From Escherichia phage JM10: a DNA stretch of 64,000 nucleotides. Positions 52,851-59,400 of the stretch are shown piece after piece; position 1 is the stretch's first letter; every line of letters begins with the position of its first letter. The notes under the pieces were generated by a model, which was not told the origin of the DNA, did no database searches, and saw only the letters and a list, made by a program, of their open reading frames with translations. Position numbers and translations under genes: made by a program. The DNA lies in the sequence record PP400777; one strand, written 5' to 3'.

Positions 52851-53399
52851 TTAACGAGCCCATTTGATGATTTCTGTAATCAAATCATTACGTTCGCTTG
52901 CATTAAATCCTATAACTTTGTTAGCACCATCATGATTAAGTAATTGATACGTTTGGATTTTGTTATGAATTGCAAACTCTTCAAAATGTGAAATGACTGT
53001 ATTAAAACCGAATGAAGACAAAGTAATAAGATCGTCTTCAAAACTTTCAGTCATTTCGTTACGTGTTAAAATAATTGTGAACACATCATGGTTTTGGCAA
53101 AGACGAACATAATCCTGTTCATAAACGTCAAGAACCGAGTCCGCATCTTGTCGAATACGTCCATAAACCCAGTTACTAATATATCCACGGTCTAATAGAT
53201 AAATCTTAGTAGGGTCTAAATAATTCAACATCGTTTCGAAACAGCCAACTTCATTTCGAGACTTAACATCGAAACGTCCATCAACTGTTCGTTTAGGGAA
53301 ATCAATCTTTACATATCTTTCACTAATTTCCATTATGTCATTAATGAAAGTTGTTTTACCAGCATTATCCGGGCCATCTACTAAAATAATTTTAGCCAT
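52851..53399 (-). CDS. P-loop nucleotide kinase (thymidylate-kinase-like)
   Basis: Walker A VDGPDNAGKTT near the N-terminus and a DRGYISNWVYG segment resembling the DRY..S..AYQ motif of dTMP kinases; 182 aa; occupies the T4 beta-glucosyltransferase locus. Confidence 0.55.
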   Translation of the reverse strand: MAKIILVDGPDNAGKTTFINDIMEISERYVKIDFPKRTVDGRFDVKSRNEVGCFETMLNYLDPTKIYLLDRGYISNWVYGRIRQDADSVLDVYEQDYVRLCQNHDVFTIILTRNEMTESFEDDLITLSSFGFNTVISHFEEFAIHNKIQTYQLLNHDGANKVIGFNASERNDLITEIIKWAR

Positions 53400-53400
53400 T

Positions 53401-54300
53401 TTATTCCTCGATTACGACATCTTCGTATTTAGGTATATTATACGGTGAAGAAATTAAAGCGTTAAAGTAGATGAACTCACCAAGACCTGGATGGAATACT
53501 TCTTCAGGATTTTCGAAATATTGAATCTTCGGACGTCCTTTAAGAATTTGATAGTACTCAGTTTTAGTTGGTTTAAAAATTCGAATCAACGCTTCTTCAG
53601 GATACTTATTTCTGTCGAAGCTATTATTTGGATCGGTTATATAAAGCGGTTGGCCTAATTGAATTGCACATTCAACCACTTGTTCAAAACGATAGCACGG
53701 GTCACTAATTCGAAATGGATGAAAAATACCATCTAGATGAATAGGAGCCAAATCACCTACAAGACGCTGCATGATGGAAGGACGTATAACTTTCTGCGTT
53801 ACGATAATCTTATTACCATCTGCACCTGCGTTAACCAGCACTTCTTTTTGACGTTCATTCAACACAGTAGTTTGAAGTGAACGATTAACCGACAACATAT
53901 CAGTTTTTAAGAATTCGTCAATATAAAAACGTGGTTTATTAGGGTCTGCAGTGATATTGAAATTGAATTCCACATCAAAAGCGCCGTCATATCCGGTGAT
54001 ATCTGTGATTAGAAAATCACAATCATAATAAGCAATTAATGAATCAACCACAAATTCATTTTCAGACCAGAAATATTTACGAGTGTTATACGCGTTATCT
54101 TTATACCATAATGGAACAAACTTAAATTCTGGGAAAAGACGTTCGCATTCTTTAATATCGGATGCATTACGTGGATATGTAATCACATCGCCTGGATTAG
54201 CACGGTGCAAATGAAGTTGGAAGTTGCCATCCTTAAGGATAGCATACTGTCCAGTTTCATAAGACCGCATACTCAAAATAGGTACGCGGAAAATAGCCAT
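53401..54300 (-). CDS. Hypothetical protein (299 aa) at the beta-glucosyltransferase locus; possible DNA-modification enzyme
   Basis: No recognisable catalytic motif by eye; ATGA-overlapped with gene 42; not similar to what I recall of T4 Bgt. Confidence 0.45.
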   Translation of the reverse strand: MAIFRVPILSMRSYETGQYAILKDGNFQLHLHRANPGDVITYPRNASDIKECERLFPEFKFVPLWYKDNAYNTRKYFWSENEFVVDSLIAYYDCDFLITDITGYDGAFDVEFNFNITADPNKPRFYIDEFLKTDMLSVNRSLQTTVLNERQKEVLVNAGADGNKIIVTQKVIRPSIMQRLVGDLAPIHLDGIFHPFRISDPCYRFEQVVECAIQLGQPLYITDPNNSFDRNKYPEEALIRIFKPTKTEYYQILKGRPKIQYFENPEEVFHPGLGEFIYFNALISSPYNIPKYEDVVIEE

Positions 54301-55016
54301 TAGTCAAGGAATCCTTTAACATAATCAAAATCACGTTCAAACACATGGGCACTTACCATGGTATGAGTATAATCACCAACTTCTACACCACATTCGTTAG
54401 CGATATAATGAAGTAATTTTCCTTGGAGATAAAAATCCAACTGCATAACAACAGCACAGTTCTGAGAACGCATATGACAGTGGGTATAAAGCTTACCATC
54501 ACGAATATAATAAGTCACTGAGTCAGTACATGGATATTCAAGCGTTTCGTCTGAATCAAGCAAAGCCTGATCAGAACTTTCTAGAATTTGGAACACAACT
54601 CTTCGAGAGTTAGGCTTCTCTTTAAGTTCTTTTAGAAGAGTTGGTAATTGGGCCGCAATGCGAGGACCATAGAAAGTGTTGAAGTTCGCCGGCAAAACAT
54701 CTGATTTTGGTTTAGAAATAAATTTAGCGACATTAGGATATGCCTTAAACGCTTCTTCTGCGTTGGTACCACCAGAAATCATAAACTTCCAGAAGTCTTC
54801 GGCATATTCATAAGAGATGCGGTTAATACGTGGGTCGGTCATTTTGAATGATGATGGAGTGTCAACAACTACTGTCATAGACCCAATTTCATTACAACGT
54901 CCAATACGAGAATCAGTTACGAATTCCGGGTTTTCTAAAATTTCACGATTGACTGCTTTAAATGCGGTTTGAAAATCTGCGGCTTTGATATATTTCATTG
55001 TGTTATGTTTTCCCAT
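54300..55016 (-). CDS. 42: dCMP hydroxymethylase gp42 (thymidylate-synthase fold)
   Basis: TS-family active-site pattern ...YPCTDSVTYYIRDGKLYTHCHMRSQNCAVVMQLDF (Cys nucleophile and RS.N segment); position between uvsX and 43 as in T4. Confidence 0.7.
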   Translation of the reverse strand: MGKHNTMKYIKAADFQTAFKAVNREILENPEFVTDSRIGRCNEIGSMTVVVDTPSSFKMTDPRINRISYEYAEDFWKFMISGGTNAEEAFKAYPNVAKFISKPKSDVLPANFNTFYGPRIAAQLPTLLKELKEKPNSRRVVFQILESSDQALLDSDETLEYPCTDSVTYYIRDGKLYTHCHMRSQNCAVVMQLDFYLQGKLLHYIANECGVEVGDYTHTMVSAHVFERDFDYVKGFLD

Positions 55017-55058: not shown

Positions 55059-55298
55059 TTATTTGAATTTCTTGACAATGTTGATATAACGTAAAGCTTC
55101 AGCATCGATACTTCCAAGAACACTATGAAGAAATGCATCAGCGTAGTATTCCAATTGAACAGGTTCTTTAATCACTTTAGCCGCTTTAGTTTCAAACAGG
55201 CCCATCAGGGCCTGTTTAAGAATTTGTTCATTAGTGTTCAGTTTCATAGTCAAAATCTCTTCATTAAGTTGGTGGTTAAAAGTTTTTCTAGAAATCAT
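55059..55298 (-). CDS. Hypothetical small protein (79 aa)
   Basis: ORF with ATGA overlap to the Cys-rich gene upstream. Confidence 0.45.
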   Translation of the reverse strand: MISRKTFNHQLNEEILTMKLNTNEQILKQALMGLFETKAAKVIKEPVQLEYYADAFLHSVLGSIDAEALRYINIVKKFK

Positions 55299-56455
55299 TC
55301 CGGGTACCTCAAAGCGTCATCAGAGTTAGTTATATCAATAATAGATATAGAGTTTTCTGCTAACCCGTTTTTAGATAATTGACGTTTATAATATCTTTCA
55401 CAATATGTACACGTCGTCCCGCAGATTTCATTAGCACAATCGAAATCTGGATGTCTGAACCACCTTTTTTCTAAAAAGCCATCTAACAAAGAGGTTTCAA
55501 TATTTACTGTATGTGAAAACTCAGTTTCGTTTTCAAGAGTGAAAATAGTCTCTAAAGGCTTCCACAGTTCTAACAAATTACCTTCAAACTTTTCAGAAGC
55601 GTATGCTTCAAGAACTTTCAAAATGTAGTCTGTACTACCTGTACGTCCTGAAACTTTGAATTGAGTGATACCAATATCATTATAAAGTTTCAAATCTTGA
55701 GGACGAACAAAACGAGTTCTCAACCAGTTAAATGGGTCTGTATCACGAGCTTTAATACAGTGCTGCATAGGATATCCGTTTAAGGATTTAGCATCATCAG
55801 CTGTAACATCAGTACTATGGAAAATATAGCAAGAGTCACGATAGCTACAATGTGTTGTATACCCTTTACCAGCATTAGAACAGAACTCATTTACAAGAAC
55901 TTCAAATATTATATTGTTCTTATTGCAAAACTCTGCTGCACGCTTCAGGAAAGAAACTGAACGGTTCTTATGAATTCCACAGCAGACCTTTTTGATATTA
56001 TATTGGTCATGCAAGTATTTGATTTGAGTTACAGCATCGACATGTAGAATTGTTGAAACTTCAATCTCAATGTCTTTATTGACTTCACGAACAATTTCCA
56101 TAACAACAGGGTTAGCGATAGTAATACGCCATACGCCTATTGACCAAAGATACTGAACATAATCCTGAATAGCTTTCTTCTTCCACTCAACTAGTTCTCT
56201 TTTTGAACCAGGATTTATCGTGTTGAGTGTATAGTTAAAGCAAATACCTAATTCGTTACAACGTTTAACGTAATCTTCTAACATCTTTTTGTCAACGTCA
56301 GGAAGCCTAAAATCAGGTCTGGCTGCTACAAAAGCCATTTCTCTTGTAGAGCCGTATACTTCGTTTATCAAGCTATTAGGATAAGTTTTATTGAGCTCTA
56401 CGATTTTATCAAGAAGAGCTAAATCAAAATTCGTTCCGATTTTAAAAGTATTCAT
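55295..56455 (-). CDS. Cys-rich protein of unknown function (386 aa), part of the sugar-nucleotide module
   Basis: 13 Cys including clusters VCCGIH, EFCSNAGKGYTTHCSYRDSC and a C-terminal CANEICGTTCTYC (C-x4-C-x3-C-x2-C); a metal or Fe-S site is possible. Confidence 0.5.
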   Translation of the reverse strand: MNTFKIGTNFDLALLDKIVELNKTYPNSLINEVYGSTREMAFVAARPDFRLPDVDKKMLEDYVKRCNELGICFNYTLNTINPGSKRELVEWKKKAIQDYVQYLWSIGVWRITIANPVVMEIVREVNKDIEIEVSTILHVDAVTQIKYLHDQYNIKKVCCGIHKNRSVSFLKRAAEFCNKNNIIFEVLVNEFCSNAGKGYTTHCSYRDSCYIFHSTDVTADDAKSLNGYPMQHCIKARDTDPFNWLRTRFVRPQDLKLYNDIGITQFKVSGRTGSTDYILKVLEAYASEKFEGNLLELWKPLETIFTLENETEFSHTVNIETSLLDGFLEKRWFRHPDFDCANEICGTTCTYCERYYKRQLSKNGLAENSISIIDITNSDDALRYPE

Positions 56456-56511
56456 TTTTTTGCATCTCGCGTTAATTGATGCGATGGTTTTTGCAGGTCT
56501 TACTTAAATTA

Positions 56512-56898
56512 TTATAGATTAGGTTTATATGATTTAAATGTTTCGAATTCGCCTTTATTCATAAGAGCTTTGAATTCGTCAGGACGCATAGCTTTGTCGT
56601 CGATAATCCAATCATATACTGGTTTATGTGTTAGCAAATTATGGTACTTCAAGCCAATGTTTGCCAAGTTCTGAATCAGACTTGGGAGAATGTCAATTGC
56701 TATACGTCCAGGACCTACTGACTTCATACCGCGAGCAGTGTAAAGCGTTATTGTATGCCCTGCATCATACAGAGCATTAATGGCAGACACCATTTCGACG
56801 TCTGGTTTGAAGTTCACGTAATCACGATTGTTATTCCACTCTGTTATACAATCATCGACATCAAAACAAAGATTAAGCATGTTTTCTACACGGTGCAT
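56512..56898 (-). CDS. HAD-superfamily phosphatase (small, about 128 aa)
   Basis: Motif I-like FDVDDCIT near the N-terminus, motif II TLYTARG, motif IV-like IIDDKAMRPDE; start taken at the ATG overlapping the upstream stop (TAATG) with GGGAA SD. Confidence 0.6.
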   Translation of the reverse strand: MHRVENMLNLCFDVDDCITEWNNNRDYVNFKPDVEMVSAINALYDAGHTITLYTARGMKSVGPGRIAIDILPSLIQNLANIGLKYHNLLTHKPVYDWIIDDKAMRPDEFKALMNKGEFETFKSYKPNL

Positions 56899-58583
56899 TA
56901 GATTCGTTCCCATTGATGAGTGATATCGCCACCGATTGGACGATAGGAAACACCAGTTTCTTTATCAGTTAGTACCCATTTACCAGGATTTTTTGTAATC
57001 AGAGTAGCCGTTACAGGTTCTGCTACGTCATAACTAATAGAGCCGTCCTGAAGTACACGGCCCATGTTACGTAATTGCTTAGTCAGAAGTTCCATACCTT
57101 TATAATATGCGGCTACCGCTTTAAGTGGATTATTCTTGAAATAACCACCTAATGCAATCCAGATAATTGCCACTGCCAAATGATGATACTCGTTAAACGA
57201 ACTCATCTTTCCATATTTGTAAACTAATGGATTGATGTTAATAGTCACATTACAAGTTGTTTCATCAATAGTAAACTGTCCCCAGGTCGGATTAGCATTG
57301 AATTCATCATAACCTGAAACAGCATAAAGCACTTTAGCTTCATCATACAATTTTGGCCCGTAAATCTTGGTTTCGCCAAAATATCCACGAGGGTCGATAA
57401 ACTTGACTTCGCCGTTATCAGTAATCATAGTATTACTGAAGTTCGGGTCACCGTGAATAACAGAGTACTGCCCCTGAGAACGGTTATGATAACGAATAAG
57501 GTGTTCTAAAGCTTGTTTCAGCATTGGCTTCAGACGTCCAATCTTAGTGTAGTTCACATGTGTGATTTTACCAAATGAATCAATCAATGGTTGAATGCTT
57601 TCACAACGATCAATAACTTTCGTATAGAATTCTTTAGTGAAATCACGACGAACAGTTTCAGGACTTACAAAATAAGTGTCTGTGCTGAATTTCAGTGCAT
57701 CTAAAATTGCATCAACAATTTGTGGACGAGCAAGACTTGATTTGGATTTAATATATTCAAATGCCGGCTTACCTTTAATGCGTTCCATTTCAAAGTTATT
57801 TTCATTAACAGAAACTAACTGAGGAACTGAATCTGATTTCACTTTAAGATACCATGAAATCTCATCTTTCTGAAGAGCTCGACCTTGTTCAGTTAATGCG
57901 AATTTAGTTACAGTTTCTTCACCAATTTCAACTGCATTAAAACTACGATTAAGTTCACGAACTTCATGAGCTTTTTCAAGTTTAGGCATATCACCTAAAT
58001 CAATTATATTCATAAGCTCTGATTTATTGAATGCGCCGCTGTAAAGGAATTCTACAAAATCACGTCCTTTGCAGTATTCATGAATTTCCTCATCGGTAGA
58101 ACCCATATAGAATTCCCAGTCTTTGAACTGATAAATTCCTACAACATTACCACCTGTTGAACCTACGTTAGTGATATTTTCACCGTCGAAATTATAGCGA
58201 CATTCGTCACCCTTAACATAGATTGCGTTGACATTCCAAGACCATGAACCAAAATCAGGAATAATATCGCACCAGTTAACAATTACGTTATGGCCATCTA
58301 AATCTTTGTGTAATTTAGCAAGAGCATAAGCAGATCCGTATGCTTCATCAACTGTACGAATAGTCACATTGAACCCTTCTTGCTCACAATAAGCTCGAAC
58401 AGTTTCAGCAAATTTTGAATGAACTACTACAATAATTTCATCTGCGCCAAGGTCAGAATAAATTGTATACAAATTGCTCAGAATAGTGTCTTGTTTATAG
58501 TTAACAAGCACCTTAGGAATATGATGCGTTATTGGATACAAACGAGTTGCCAGTCCAGCACCAAGAATAACAGCTTTTTTCAT
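56898..58583 (-). CDS. Bifunctional sugar-1-phosphate nucleotidyltransferase (RmlA/GalU-like) / APH-fold sugar 1-kinase
   Basis: N-terminus MKKAVILGAGLATRLYPITHHIPKVLV matches the G-x-G-T-R-L signature of sugar-1-P nucleotidyltransferases; C-terminal VIHGDPNFSNTMITDNGEVKFIDPRGYFGE matches the HGD...N / D-x-E motifs of aminoglycoside/choline/anomeric-sugar kinases; 561 aa. Confidence 0.7.
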   Translation of the reverse strand: MKKAVILGAGLATRLYPITHHIPKVLVNYKQDTILSNLYTIYSDLGADEIIVVVHSKFAETVRAYCEQEGFNVTIRTVDEAYGSAYALAKLHKDLDGHNVIVNWCDIIPDFGSWSWNVNAIYVKGDECRYNFDGENITNVGSTGGNVVGIYQFKDWEFYMGSTDEEIHEYCKGRDFVEFLYSGAFNKSELMNIIDLGDMPKLEKAHEVRELNRSFNAVEIGEETVTKFALTEQGRALQKDEISWYLKVKSDSVPQLVSVNENNFEMERIKGKPAFEYIKSKSSLARPQIVDAILDALKFSTDTYFVSPETVRRDFTKEFYTKVIDRCESIQPLIDSFGKITHVNYTKIGRLKPMLKQALEHLIRYHNRSQGQYSVIHGDPNFSNTMITDNGEVKFIDPRGYFGETKIYGPKLYDEAKVLYAVSGYDEFNANPTWGQFTIDETTCNVTININPLVYKYGKMSSFNEYHHLAVAIIWIALGGYFKNNPLKAVAAYYKGMELLTKQLRNMGRVLQDGSISYDVAEPVTATLITKNPGKWVLTDKETGVSYRPIGGDITHQWERI

Positions 58584-58624: not shown

Positions 58625-58768
58625 CTAGTTAAAGCATTCATACTTCGCTTGTAGTCCAATCATAATCCATCCGATTATAAGAGTCGGAACCATTACTGGA
58701 GCCGTTAAGCTCCAGTAGATAGTCATGACAAGCATCAATAGTAAAAGTCCTATTGTTATTGCTTTCAT
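58625..58768 (-). CDS. Small membrane protein (47 aa), not in ORF track
   Basis: MKAITIGLLLLMLVMTIYWSLTAPVMVPTLIIGWIMIGLQAKYECFN; start overlaps the SIS gene stop (ATGA). Confidence 0.45.
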   Translation of the reverse strand: MKAITIGLLLLMLVMTIYWSLTAPVMVPTLIIGWIMIGLQAKYECFN

Positions 58769-59400
58769 TGCTCGCCTCGTAACATGGCACCTAGTGCACC
58801 GCCTGGATGGAACTTAAGGAAGTCATTAGAGGTAAATCCACGTTCAGACGAAAGGTTGATAGCAAACGTATCGATAAGCGCTAACAACAATGTAGTGGAC
58901 ATAGTCGGAGCCAGAGAATTCTCATCAACCTCTACTGCGATGCCTGTACAGAACGTATAATCAAAAAGAGCTTCGTATTCTTGTGGAATGTCAGGGTTAC
59001 AATGTAACAGAATCTGTTTAACCTGAGGACGAATCATACGAAGATGTTTAGCAACACCTATCATTTCTTCAGTCTTACCAGAACGACTGATGTGAACTAA
59101 TACATCATTAGGTGCAATAAATCCTGCGTCACCATGAGAATAATGCCCGGTGTTCAAATACATGCTAGGAATACCGAGTGAAGCAAAAGTCTCGGAAGCT
59201 TTAGTTGCGATATTAGCATTCTTACCAACACCTGTAATAATTACTCGGCTTTCATAATTACTAAGTCCCGGGCGTCGAAGAGTTTCTAGAATAGCATTAT
59301 AACGAGCAGGGTTTTGACTAATTACTTTGGCCATAGCGGCCAAAGAAGAAGCTTGTTTTATGATTGCGTCAATAGCGATAGTAATAGGAGTAGTTTTCAT
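58765..59400 (-). CDS. Arabinose-5-phosphate isomerase-like SIS-domain protein (KdsD/KpsF N-terminal domain, no CBS pair)
   Basis: SRVIITGVGKNANIATKASETFASLGIPSMYLNTGHYSHGDAGFIAPNDVLVHISRSGKTEEM and ...LAPTMSTT...FHPGGALG align motif-by-motif with the KdsD SIS domain as I recall it (GKVVVMGMGKSGHIG..ATFASTGTPSFF..HGDLGM..DVVIAISNSGESSE ... APTSSTT ... SHPGGALG); 211 aa. Confidence 0.75.
   Translation of the reverse strand: MKTTPITIAIDAIIKQASSLAAMAKVISQNPARYNAILETLRRPGLSNYESRVIITGVGKNANIATKASETFASLGIPSMYLNTGHYSHGDAGFIAPNDVLVHISRSGKTEEMIGVAKHLRMIRPQVKQILLHCNPDIPQEYEALFDYTFCTGIAVEVDENSLAPTMSTTLLLALIDTFAINLSSERGFTSNDFLKFHPGGALGAMLRGEQ

Follow-up and report, generated by a model that had tools for sequence, protein, structure and literature searches.

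The window analysed here, the whole 64,000-nucleotide stretch of Escherichia phage JM10 (PP400777), comes from a T4-like phage of the RB69 group (Mosigvirus), in which DNA polymerase, UvsX and gp41 flank the locus of interest. The subject of this work is gp50, the orthologue of RB69 gp50, which encodes a cysteine-rich protein. At the DNA level the target is 99.9% identical to Escherichia phage NRG-P0074; its protein shares 99.5% identity with RB69p050. Between 52851 and 59400, all genes lie tightly packed on the minus strand and are read in the order arabinose-5-phosphate isomerase, AfhE-like protein, HAD phosphatase, gp50, ORF049, ThyA homologue, glycosyltransferase and thymidylate-kinase-like protein (Table 1); 280 bp separate gp50 from the gp48-type ThyA gene. 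Family membership, fold, conserved cysteines, gene neighbourhoods and distribution across phages and hosts were established directly. On this basis gp50 may be an anaerobic, prephenate-dependent C5-hydroxylase of a deoxypyrimidine mononucleotide, here converting deoxycytidine monophosphate (dCMP) to 5-hydroxy-dCMP (5hodCMP), a reading whose chances we put slightly above even.

Cysteine pattern, family and fold of gp50

The end coordinate of gp50 takes in the stop codon, and its open reading frame (ORF) encodes 386 amino acids (aa). Thirteen of these are cysteines (residues 66, 72, 158, 159, 177, 192, 203, 209, 233, 340, 345, 349 and 352), a share of 3.4% against 1.2% for the rest of the window's long ORFs (binomial P = 0.001). 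They include a C-terminal block, C340-x4-C345-x3-C349-x2-C352 (CANEICGTTCTYC), and a central block, C192-x10-C203-x5-C209, followed by C233; the ORF, its cysteine count and both blocks, as described in an earlier note made from the letters alone, were confirmed in the window. This pattern is not due to chance, and its conservation is stronger evidence than the cysteine content itself. Nine cysteines (158, 192, 203, 209, 233, 340, 345, 349 and 352) do not vary among 121 homologues, the most distant of which share about 47% identity. Across 131 representatives of the wider gp50 clade, at 24-49% identity, conservation reaches 98-100% for C192 and C233 and 56% for C158; for the C-terminal four it is 85-88%, the rest being mostly gaps. 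The dN/dS of the gene, 0.02-0.09 against six orthologues, indicates strong purifying selection.

We regard gp50 as very probably an iron-sulphur (Fe-S) enzyme of the U32 family. Pfam Peptidase_U32 (PF01136) matched residues 94-286 with E=7.3e-11 and 42.2 bits, against a gathering score of 22.4, and PF01136 is present in the precomputed annotation of all close homologues. It was the only match to gp50 at E<=0.1: neither Peptidase_U32_C (PF16325) nor other C-terminal RNA-associated domains were found, and the C-terminus is a short four-cysteine tail. In the AlphaFold2 model, built with 74 sequences (predicted local distance difference test, pLDDT, 93; predicted template modelling score, pTM, 0.91), strands and helices alternate as in a TIM barrel, and fold comparison showed a barrel like that of the solved U32 protein Mk0906 (PDB 5d88). 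This structure surfaced by fold comparison alone; searches of PDB-chain sequences with the single protein and with a profile returned chance matches only. Mk0906, a Methanopyrus kandleri U32 protein with no assigned function, differs from gp50 in sequence (14% identity, 247 residues) and lacks its C-terminal cysteine block.

The earlier note had recognised no glycosyltransferase or kinase motif, had considered an Fe-S or zinc-dependent enzyme, and had listed radical SAM, U32 and TIM-barrel families for checking. U32 proved to be the right family, and gp50 is neither a glycosyltransferase nor a kinase; the TIM barrel was borne out by the model, and a metal enzyme, of the Fe-S kind, is very probable. 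No clear homology to a housekeeping phage protein unrelated to modification was seen. The radical SAM suggestion fared less well. The CX3CX2C spacing of C345-x3-C349-x2-C352 fits, but the Radical_SAM profile (PF04055) gave no match, and the position of the motif at the extreme C-terminus, with a fourth invariant cysteine (C340) alongside, also speaks against this reading.

Among the four characterised E. coli U32 proteins, the gp50 profile matched RlhA best (hhalign probability 84%, E = 7e-6, 205 columns), with C203 and C209 aligned to the CX6C pair of RlhA. The NCBIfam UbiU model scored 18.5 bits against a cut-off of 440, and the cluster in the window contains neither a second U32 gene nor an SCP2/UbiT gene. 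Judged by these comparisons, gp50 is not an orthologue of any of the four. A profile search of 1.84 billion representatives returned 480 clusters at E <= 1e-30 and 1,700 at E <= 1e-3, and the gp50 clade, delimited by profile, is small and well separated.

The characterised members nevertheless provide the closest models. RlhA (YdcP) of E. coli is required for 5-hydroxycytidine-2501 of 23S rRNA and depends on both Fe-S biogenesis and prephenate (PMC5727448). It shares with gp50 the Pfam family, the best profile match and the proposed outcome, a hydroxyl at C5 of cytosine. However, RlhA is longer (653 aa), has additional domains and modifies a ribosomal precursor, whereas gp50 lacks those domains as well as the CX3/4C pair, has its own C-terminal CX4CX3CX2C block, and is about 22% identical to RlhA over the barrel. 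In tRNA, the prephenate-dependent formation of 5-hydroxyuridine requires TrhP (YegQ), and the unrelated TrhO makes the same base with O2; anaerobes, it was argued, need the TrhP route, while organisms living in both regimes gain from having TrhP and TrhO (PMC6599085). Phages would likewise pair an O2-independent U32/prephenate route with an O2-dependent route to one 5-hydroxypyrimidine, and their distribution mirrors this expectation. The O2-dependent partner is, however, a flavin-binding ThyA homologue in phages and a rhodanese in the case of TrhO, and the proposed substrate of gp50, which is without Peptidase_U32_C, is a deoxynucleotide, while that of TrhP is tRNA. UbiU and UbiV, each with a [4Fe-4S] cluster held by four cysteines, are essential for O2-independent ubiquinone hydroxylation (PMC6747719), in which prephenate is the oxygen donor (PMC10990095). 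They too belong to the U32 family, and the invariant cysteines of gp50 would be enough for two clusters per chain, where the heterodimer holds its two in two chains; the lipid substrate, the heterodimeric state, the need for UbiT and the cysteine spacing all differ from gp50. Finally, the gp48-type synthases (RB69 gp48, DLP3 gp80 and the HY126 homologue) belong to the same pathway and yield the product proposed for gp50, but have a thymidylate-synthase fold, flavin mononucleotide (FMN) and O2 as the oxygen source.

Base modification and gene neighbourhoods of the clade

RB69 DNA contains mono- and poly-arabinosylated 5-hydroxycytosine (5hoC; Lee et al., NAR 2026, PMC13326640). A phage dCTPase depletes dCTP, and cytosine in the DNA is fully replaced. 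The ThyA homologue gp48, which holds its flavin loosely, makes 5hodCMP with oxygen taken from O2, as seen by 18O2 labelling; it is the only 5hodCMP synthase known in these phages, and it needs O2 (PMC13326640). The sugar branch, made up of the isomerase, AfhE-like and AfhF-like proteins, accounts for uridine diphosphate (UDP)-arabinose, according to the part of the work of He et al. that is cited there (PMC13326640). In PMC13326640 itself, gp50 is confined to Table 1, where it bears the label "Sugar or heterocycle reductase" and 5d88 is given as structural match. The paper also describes Acinetobacter phage DLP3, with tri-arabinosylated 5hoC, in whose cluster the locus tags run directly from the ThyA homologue to the phosphatase. 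Our literature search, whose scope did not extend to the HY126 paper of He et al. and the original arabinosyl-hydroxy-cytosine paper, returned no paper joining U32, arabinosyl and phage, and none tying TrhP, U32 or prephenate to this phage gene or to 5-hydroxycytosine in phage DNA. The family of gp50 is not mentioned in the Thanatos and Durham-collection papers. The gene would represent the recruitment of a U32 hydroxylase clade to the modification of DNA precursors.

Genes that could supply prephenate recur beside the U32 gene. In Enterobacter phage Entb_45, the 79-aa gene that overlaps the U32 stop codon encodes an AroQ chorismate mutase (CM; Pfam CM_2, 40.9 bits, cut-off 27), and in 14 of 17 T4-like loci a stand-alone AroQ CM (CM_2 36-43 bits, same cut-off) stands between the U32 gene and the ThyA-like one. 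With the Entb_45 CM as query, tblastn found 56 GenBank phage records; among the matches listed, the CM adjoins the ThyA-like gene and, where annotated, the U32 gene. More remote loci were collected with the clade profile, 52 from IMG/VR and 11 from GTDB species genomes (loci are designated by L numbers); the 43 distant loci hold relatives at 37-58% identity, with neighbourhoods covering 8-10 kb on either side. A CM domain adjoins the U32 gene in 14 of these 43, either stand-alone or fused to a 3-deoxy-D-arabino-heptulosonate 7-phosphate (DAHP) synthase. A DAHP synthase-like protein with C-terminal CM_2 was found at L031, L034, L035 and L045, a stand-alone CM_2 at L037, L040 and relatives, and a DAHP synthase-like protein alone at L020; we keep to "DAHP synthase-like" because all scores fall under the curated cut-offs of NCBI. 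In two gene architectures and in unrelated phage lineages, a prephenate-making enzyme, and sometimes the shikimate entry enzyme, has therefore been placed beside the U32 gene. We consider it probable that gp50 uses prephenate.

The fused genes, of type I-beta, lie at L031:8411-9433, L034:7302-8357, L035:8332-9387 and L045:11079-12197, and also at L061:6931-7959. These genes of uncultured phages look like shikimate-pathway auxiliary metabolic genes. For the proteins of cluster 4, a 3-deoxy-D-manno-octulosonate 8-phosphate (KDO8P) synthase was considered and rejected, since DAHP synthase models matched with E of 1e-59 to 1e-65, compared with 1e-17 to 1e-19 for KDO8P synthase models, and several members are fused to CM_2; the DAHP synthase-like/CM loci also encode an arabinose-5-phosphate isomerase, and a KDO8P-type activity is conceivable there. 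Two further candidates were discarded: the 82-aa gene upstream of U32 in jumbo-type contigs is predicted to encode a membrane protein and not a CM, and the 248-254-aa gene downstream of U32 in L074 and L077 showed no similarity to DAHP synthase.

The other neighbours favour the base branch over the sugar branch. When E. coli ThyA, T4 gp42, RB69-type gp48 and the L022 enzyme, together with a broad hidden Markov model, were searched against six-frame translations, 42 of the 43 distant loci contained no thymidylate-synthase-family ORF within 8-10 kb, L022 being the sole exception. Homologues of the first RB69 arabinosyltransferase occur in 11 of the 43, and AfhE-like genes in 19, leaving 24 without. 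Thymidylate-kinase-like (TMK-like) kinases, dUTPase_2/MazG-like proteins and dCMP deaminases are recurrent. A phage of about 49.8 kb, seen in three samples, carries in order a primase and, further on, a TMK-like kinase, a glycosyltransferase, the U32 gene (overlapping the glycosyltransferase stop codon), Pol III alpha, RecA, ThyX and a dCMP deaminase. In contigs of 466 kb and 60 kb, a dCMP deaminase gene precedes U32, overlapping it in the former, together with thymidylate kinase, uracil-DNA glycosylase and Pol III alpha; the 466-kb contig additionally carries MazG/dUTPase_2. On cellular contigs (Phocaeicola faecalis, and metagenome-assembled genomes, MAGs, of Bacillota and Clostridia), U32 is the last gene of a cassette that comprises GP88, a guanylate-kinase/S-adenosylmethionine (SAM)-methyltransferase and a gene of unknown function. 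These contexts of kinases, deaminases, pyrophosphatases and glycosyltransferases, many of them without sugar-nucleotide genes, point to a deoxynucleotide as the substrate of the clade, and in several phages the U32 gene appears to fill the logical slot of T4 gp42.

Distribution, proposed reaction and alternatives

The two routes to 5hodCMP, demonstrated for gp48 and proposed for gp50, are distributed differently among hosts. By tblastn, the U32 gene was found in 221 phage records, all with Enterobacterales or Shewanella hosts. The ThyA-like 5hodCMP synthase was found in 373, including 57 from Acinetobacter and 20 from Rhizobium phages, and the U32 gene is absent from every one of these 57 and 20. 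In Acinetobacter phage Mokit, 2 nt separate the phosphatase gene from the ThyA gene. The gp50 clade was also present in 11 of 185,579 species genomes, mostly MAGs of gut or other anaerobic lineages. A three-way pattern emerges, with the ThyA-like gene alone in phages of aerobes, both genes in many phages of facultative anaerobes, and U32 without ThyA on anaerobe-binned contigs; such a pattern has been described for TrhO/TrhP and for UbiIHF/UbiUV.

From these data we infer the metal content, prephenate use, substrate, product and O2 independence of gp50, and we propose the following mechanism. The protein would be a soluble Fe-S enzyme with a single subunit and would form the anaerobic counterpart to gp48, its O2/FMN-dependent neighbour. 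Supplied by the phage dCTPase, dCMP would bind together with prephenate in the TIM-barrel pocket, lined by invariant Arg, Lys and Asn. The cluster or clusters at C192/C203/C209/C233 and C340/C345/C349/C352 would take two electrons from the pyrimidine ring and hand them to an acceptor of the cell; prephenate would decarboxylate and its C4 hydroxyl leave as a nucleophile, yielding 5hodCMP, phenylpyruvate and CO2, in line with the decarboxylating-prephenate chemistry proposed for UbiU/V (PMC10990095). One [4Fe-4S] cluster would occupy the canonical U32 position, held by C203 and C209 plus C192 and/or C233, and the C-terminal Cys4 block is probably a second metal site. Phage deoxynucleoside monophosphate (dNMP) kinase(s) would then phosphorylate the product, DNA polymerase would incorporate it, and arabinosylation on the DNA would follow, along the pathway common with gp48. 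In phages where a dCMP deaminase gene precedes U32, the substrate might be dUMP. A mononucleotide is favoured over DNA because dCTP is removed and cytosine replaced, because the polymer-binding domains of RlhA and TrhP are missing, and because the relatives lie among dNMP-handling enzymes.

We extend this reading more tentatively, and at slightly less than even chances, to the dedicated phage U32 clade as a whole, whose members would be O2-independent, prephenate-consuming hydroxylases of deoxypyrimidine nucleotides, fed by auxiliary shikimate genes of the phages themselves (chorismate mutase, DAHP synthase-CM fusions). The only demonstrated 5hodCMP route needs O2, yet the hosts live largely without oxygen, and an anaerobic route would explain how the modification is kept up in the gut. 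If the proposal is right, phages of strict anaerobes would have no route other than U32 to 5-hydroxypyrimidine DNA, which serves as acceptor in DNA glycosylation, and in phages of facultative anaerobes, such as the RB69-like ones, U32 would back up the O2-dependent ThyA-like enzyme. Among U32 hydroxylases gp50 would be the first to act on a small, soluble substrate, and its reaction the first step of DNA biosynthesis to depend on prephenate. A single-chain 386-aa enzyme acting on a mononucleotide and prephenate would be much easier to study than systems built on a ribosome precursor, a tRNA or a membrane quinone, and with gp50 it could be decided whether the U32 proteins themselves carry out the hydroxylation and in what way prephenate gives up its oxygen. 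With a defined purpose, chorismate mutase and DAHP synthase would join the phage auxiliary metabolic genes, and the U32 gene would serve as a marker of 5-hydroxypyrimidine-based DNA hypermodification in uncultured phages of anaerobes, relevant to restriction and CRISPR evasion and to phage therapy. If the proposal is wrong, gp50 stays a conserved Fe-S enzyme without a known role in a well-studied model phage.

Several points weigh against this proposal. As of 2024, none of the U32 hydroxylases had been reconstituted in vitro (PMC10990095), so that the catalytic role of the family rests on genetics, and the known substrates of U32 hydroxylation are RNA polymers or a lipid, with no mononucleotide among them. 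In gp50, the spacing CX10CX5CX23C departs from the canonical CX6CX15CX3/4C, whose CX3/4C pair has no counterpart, and C203 and C209 are conserved in only about 61% of the wider clade. No chorismate mutase lies within the 64-kb window, so prephenate would here have to come from host PheA and TyrA. A ThyA homologue could lie beyond the 8-10 kb flanks of the distant loci, and the phages of about 50 kb do carry ThyX. The host pattern, with a raw P = 2e-37 in a Fisher test, comes from few clades and is without phylogenetic correction, and phage contigs binned into MAGs are unreliable evidence of host. Furthermore, E. coli Dhakavirus WG01 (L080) has no U32 gene despite the same pathway, and by annotation Kosakonia phage 305 and Enterobacter phage Q7622 have the ThyA-like synthase and sugar genes without U32; from WG01 and Kosakonia phage 305, the U32 gene is not required for enteric hosts in general.

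Other explanations account for part of these observations. The characterised U32 proteins that act on nucleic acids all use polymers, and RlhA is the best E. coli match, so gp50 might hydroxylate cytosine within DNA after replication rather than dCMP. We consider this unlikely, as Peptidase_U32_C and the other C-terminal domains of TrhP and RlhA are missing, little cytosine is left in DNA once dCTP is depleted and cytosine fully replaced (PMC13326640), and the relatives lie beside dNMP kinases, dCMP deaminase, NT5C and deoxynucleoside kinase. That absence of C-terminal domains also bears on an RNA hydroxylase, a phage analogue of TrhP or RlhA that would make 5-hydroxyuridine-34 in tRNA or 5-hydroxycytidine in rRNA and tune translation during infection. 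Such an enzyme would belong to the same family, and a supply of prephenate would serve it too; E. coli, however, already has trhP, trhO and rlhA, and the U32 clade always lies within gene sets for DNA precursors and DNA glycosylation, which makes this explanation improbable to a greater degree than hydroxylation within DNA. A true peptidase or collagenase is hardly credible: only database names ("peptidase", "collagenase-like protease") speak for it, the name is historical, the characterised U32 members are linked to hydroxylation, no proteolysis genes occur in the context, and the invariant cysteines and Arg/Lys pattern fit a barrel that binds a cofactor and small anions.

The remaining alternatives concern the immediate neighbours of gp50. 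A redox helper or "heterocycle/sugar reductase", for instance one that provides reduced flavin to gp48 or reduces a pathway intermediate, would suit a gene that adjoins gp48 with its loosely held flavin, has Fe-S-like cysteine motifs and bears such a published computational label. Its chances appear as slim as those of hydroxylation within DNA: gp48 is active in E. coli in the absence of gp50, the complete pathway including gp48 is present in Acinetobacter phages that lack gp50, a ThyA homologue is missing near 42 of the 43 distant relatives, none of the known U32 members is a reductase, and the repeated linkage to chorismate mutase and DAHP synthase is left unexplained. The earlier note had described gp50 as embedded in the sugar pathway, and an epimerase, oxidoreductase or transferase acting on arabinose-5-phosphate, UDP-arabinose or DNA-linked arabinose would agree with a position between the HAD phosphatase and the base-branch genes and with the 19 distant loci that have AfhE-like genes. 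As a function, this is probably wrong, and we rate it slightly below the redox helper and close to the RNA hydroxylase, only marginally above the latter. UDP-arabinose is already explained by the isomerase, AfhE and AfhF, in so far as He et al. is cited in PMC13326640; phage DLP3 makes tri-arabinosyl-5hoC without a U32 gene, and Acinetobacter phages arabinosylate the same base without it (PMC13326640). In 24 of the 43 distant loci U32 occurs without AfhE-like genes, and relatives lie with nucleotide kinases, dCMP deaminase, deoxynucleoside triphosphate pyrophosphatase and DNA glycosyltransferase in the absence of sugar-nucleotide genes, or beside prephenate-supplying enzymes, a linkage that a sugar enzyme would not explain. 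The neighbours of the relatives and the Acinetobacter phages without U32 therefore favour action on the base, as a nucleotide hydroxylase, and not on the sugar. Each of the five alternatives leaves unexplained either the CM/DAHP synthase linkage or the contexts without ThyA and sugar genes; the probability that remains belongs to an explanation outside all of these.

Neighbouring genes and further observations

Table 1. Coordinates of gp50, of features within and upstream of it, and of the neighbouring genes in the window.
Feature	Position	Strand	Evidence or remark
gp50 (RB69 gp50 orthologue; divergent Peptidase_U32-family protein)	55295..56455	-	ATG start, 386 codons + stop
Peptidase_U32 Pfam match, TIM-barrel core (aa 94-286)	55598..56176	-	Pfam and AlphaFold2 model
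Central Cys block C192-x10-C203-x5-C209-x23-C233, candidate [4Fe-4S] site at the canonical U32 Cys motif position	55757..55882	-	Conservation and RlhA alignment; metal binding putative
C-terminal Cys block, clade-specific, candidate second metal or Fe-S site	55400..55438	-	Conservation; model pLDDT >90
Sigma-70-like promoter match TTTAAA-16-TATAAT, just upstream of U32 start, weak	56511..56538	-	Motif scan
ORF049, RB69p049 orthologue, 79 aa, PHROG 8601	55059..55298	-	ATG overlaps U32 stop (ATGA)
ThyA homologue, 5-hydroxy-dCMP synthase, RB69 gp48 orthologue, O2/flavin route	54300..55016	-	Pfam Thymidylat_synt; 98.7% identical to RB69 gp48; function experimental in PMC13326640
DNA arabinosyltransferase 1, RB69 gp46:47 orthologue, single intact ORF	53401..54300	-	PMC13326640 Table 1
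Thymidylate-kinase-like nucleotide kinase, RB69 gp45 orthologue	52851..53399	-	PHROG 761; PMC13326640 Table 1
HAD phosphatase, AfhF-like, RB69 gp51 orthologue, sugar branch	56512..56913	-	TIGR01689; PMC13326640
Bifunctional sugar kinase/nucleotidyltransferase, AfhE-like, RB69 gp52:53 orthologue, sugar branch	56898..58583	-	Pfam NTP_transferase and kinase-like matches; PMC13326640
Arabinose-5-phosphate isomerase, RB69 gp55 orthologue, sugar branch	58765..59400	-	SIS domain, KpsF/GutQ/KdsD models

A single intact ORF codes for each of two proteins here, the glycosyltransferase (299 aa) and the AfhE-like protein (561 aa), while both are split in the RB69 record (RB69p046/047 and RB69p052/053); the intact ORFs agree with the published attribution of the RB69 splits to sequencing errors in that older record. 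Promoter-like sites in the region were not above the level of shuffled sequence (22 found, 26.7 expected), and in the combined promoter and terminator scan the sites were no more numerous than in shuffles.

Several associations were noted among the distant loci. The cellular cassette occurs at L066:3044-7137 (a Phocaeicola faecalis isolate) and at L059, L065, L067, L068 and L046, GP88 corresponding to PF17338 and the protein of unknown function having 265-285 aa. In an extended Bacillota cluster (L075:7135-17428), U32 is followed by NT5C, a PnuC-like transporter, a deoxynucleoside kinase and a tRNA-synt_2c-like protein, then by a radical SAM/SPASM protein, a second U32 paralogue and a nucleoside deoxyribosyltransferase. 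By its gene content, the cellular cassette looks like a pathway for a modified, perhaps hydroxylated and then methylated, deoxynucleoside or deoxynucleotide. The radical SAM/SPASM protein recurs near a U32 clade member, at L074:1314-2249 in the 466-kb megaphage contig and at L075:14160-15185 in the cellular cluster, and could be a maturase or a partner enzyme. In the phage of about 49.8 kb, ThyX, a dCMP deaminase and an OGG_N/HhH-GPD DNA glycosylase stand in a row (L071:15108-17129), a few kb from the glycosyltransferase-U32 pair; such an 8-oxoG-type glycosylase beside nucleotide-modification genes is unusual in a phage.

ORF049, next to gp50, is translationally coupled to it through the ATGA overlap. 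It gave no Pfam or NCBIfam match at E<=10, and its AlphaFold2 model is a two-helix hairpin of low confidence (pLDDT 70, pTM 0.46). In a large protein database it was found only in close relatives, at an identity of at least 81%, and it may be decaying, with shortened variants of 47-58 aa in several assemblies. A diverged AroQ chorismate mutase was considered and rejected, as there was no profile match, BLASTP gave E=6.9 and hhalign a probability of 0.1% against phage CMs. The slot of ORF049 is beside the chorismate mutase gene of related phages, or replaces it, and both genes are present in Yersinia and Pectobacterium phages and in contig L021. Taken from their first possible start, the CM ORFs of EcS1 (L015:11158-11502) and of the Serratia CHI14 type (L017:11158-11502) have an N-terminal extension, MRRINH(T/M)MNE..., that resembles the N-terminus of ORF049 (M..INHKLNEEL), which points to an ORF049 remnant, either fused in frame to the CM gene or situated upstream of it.

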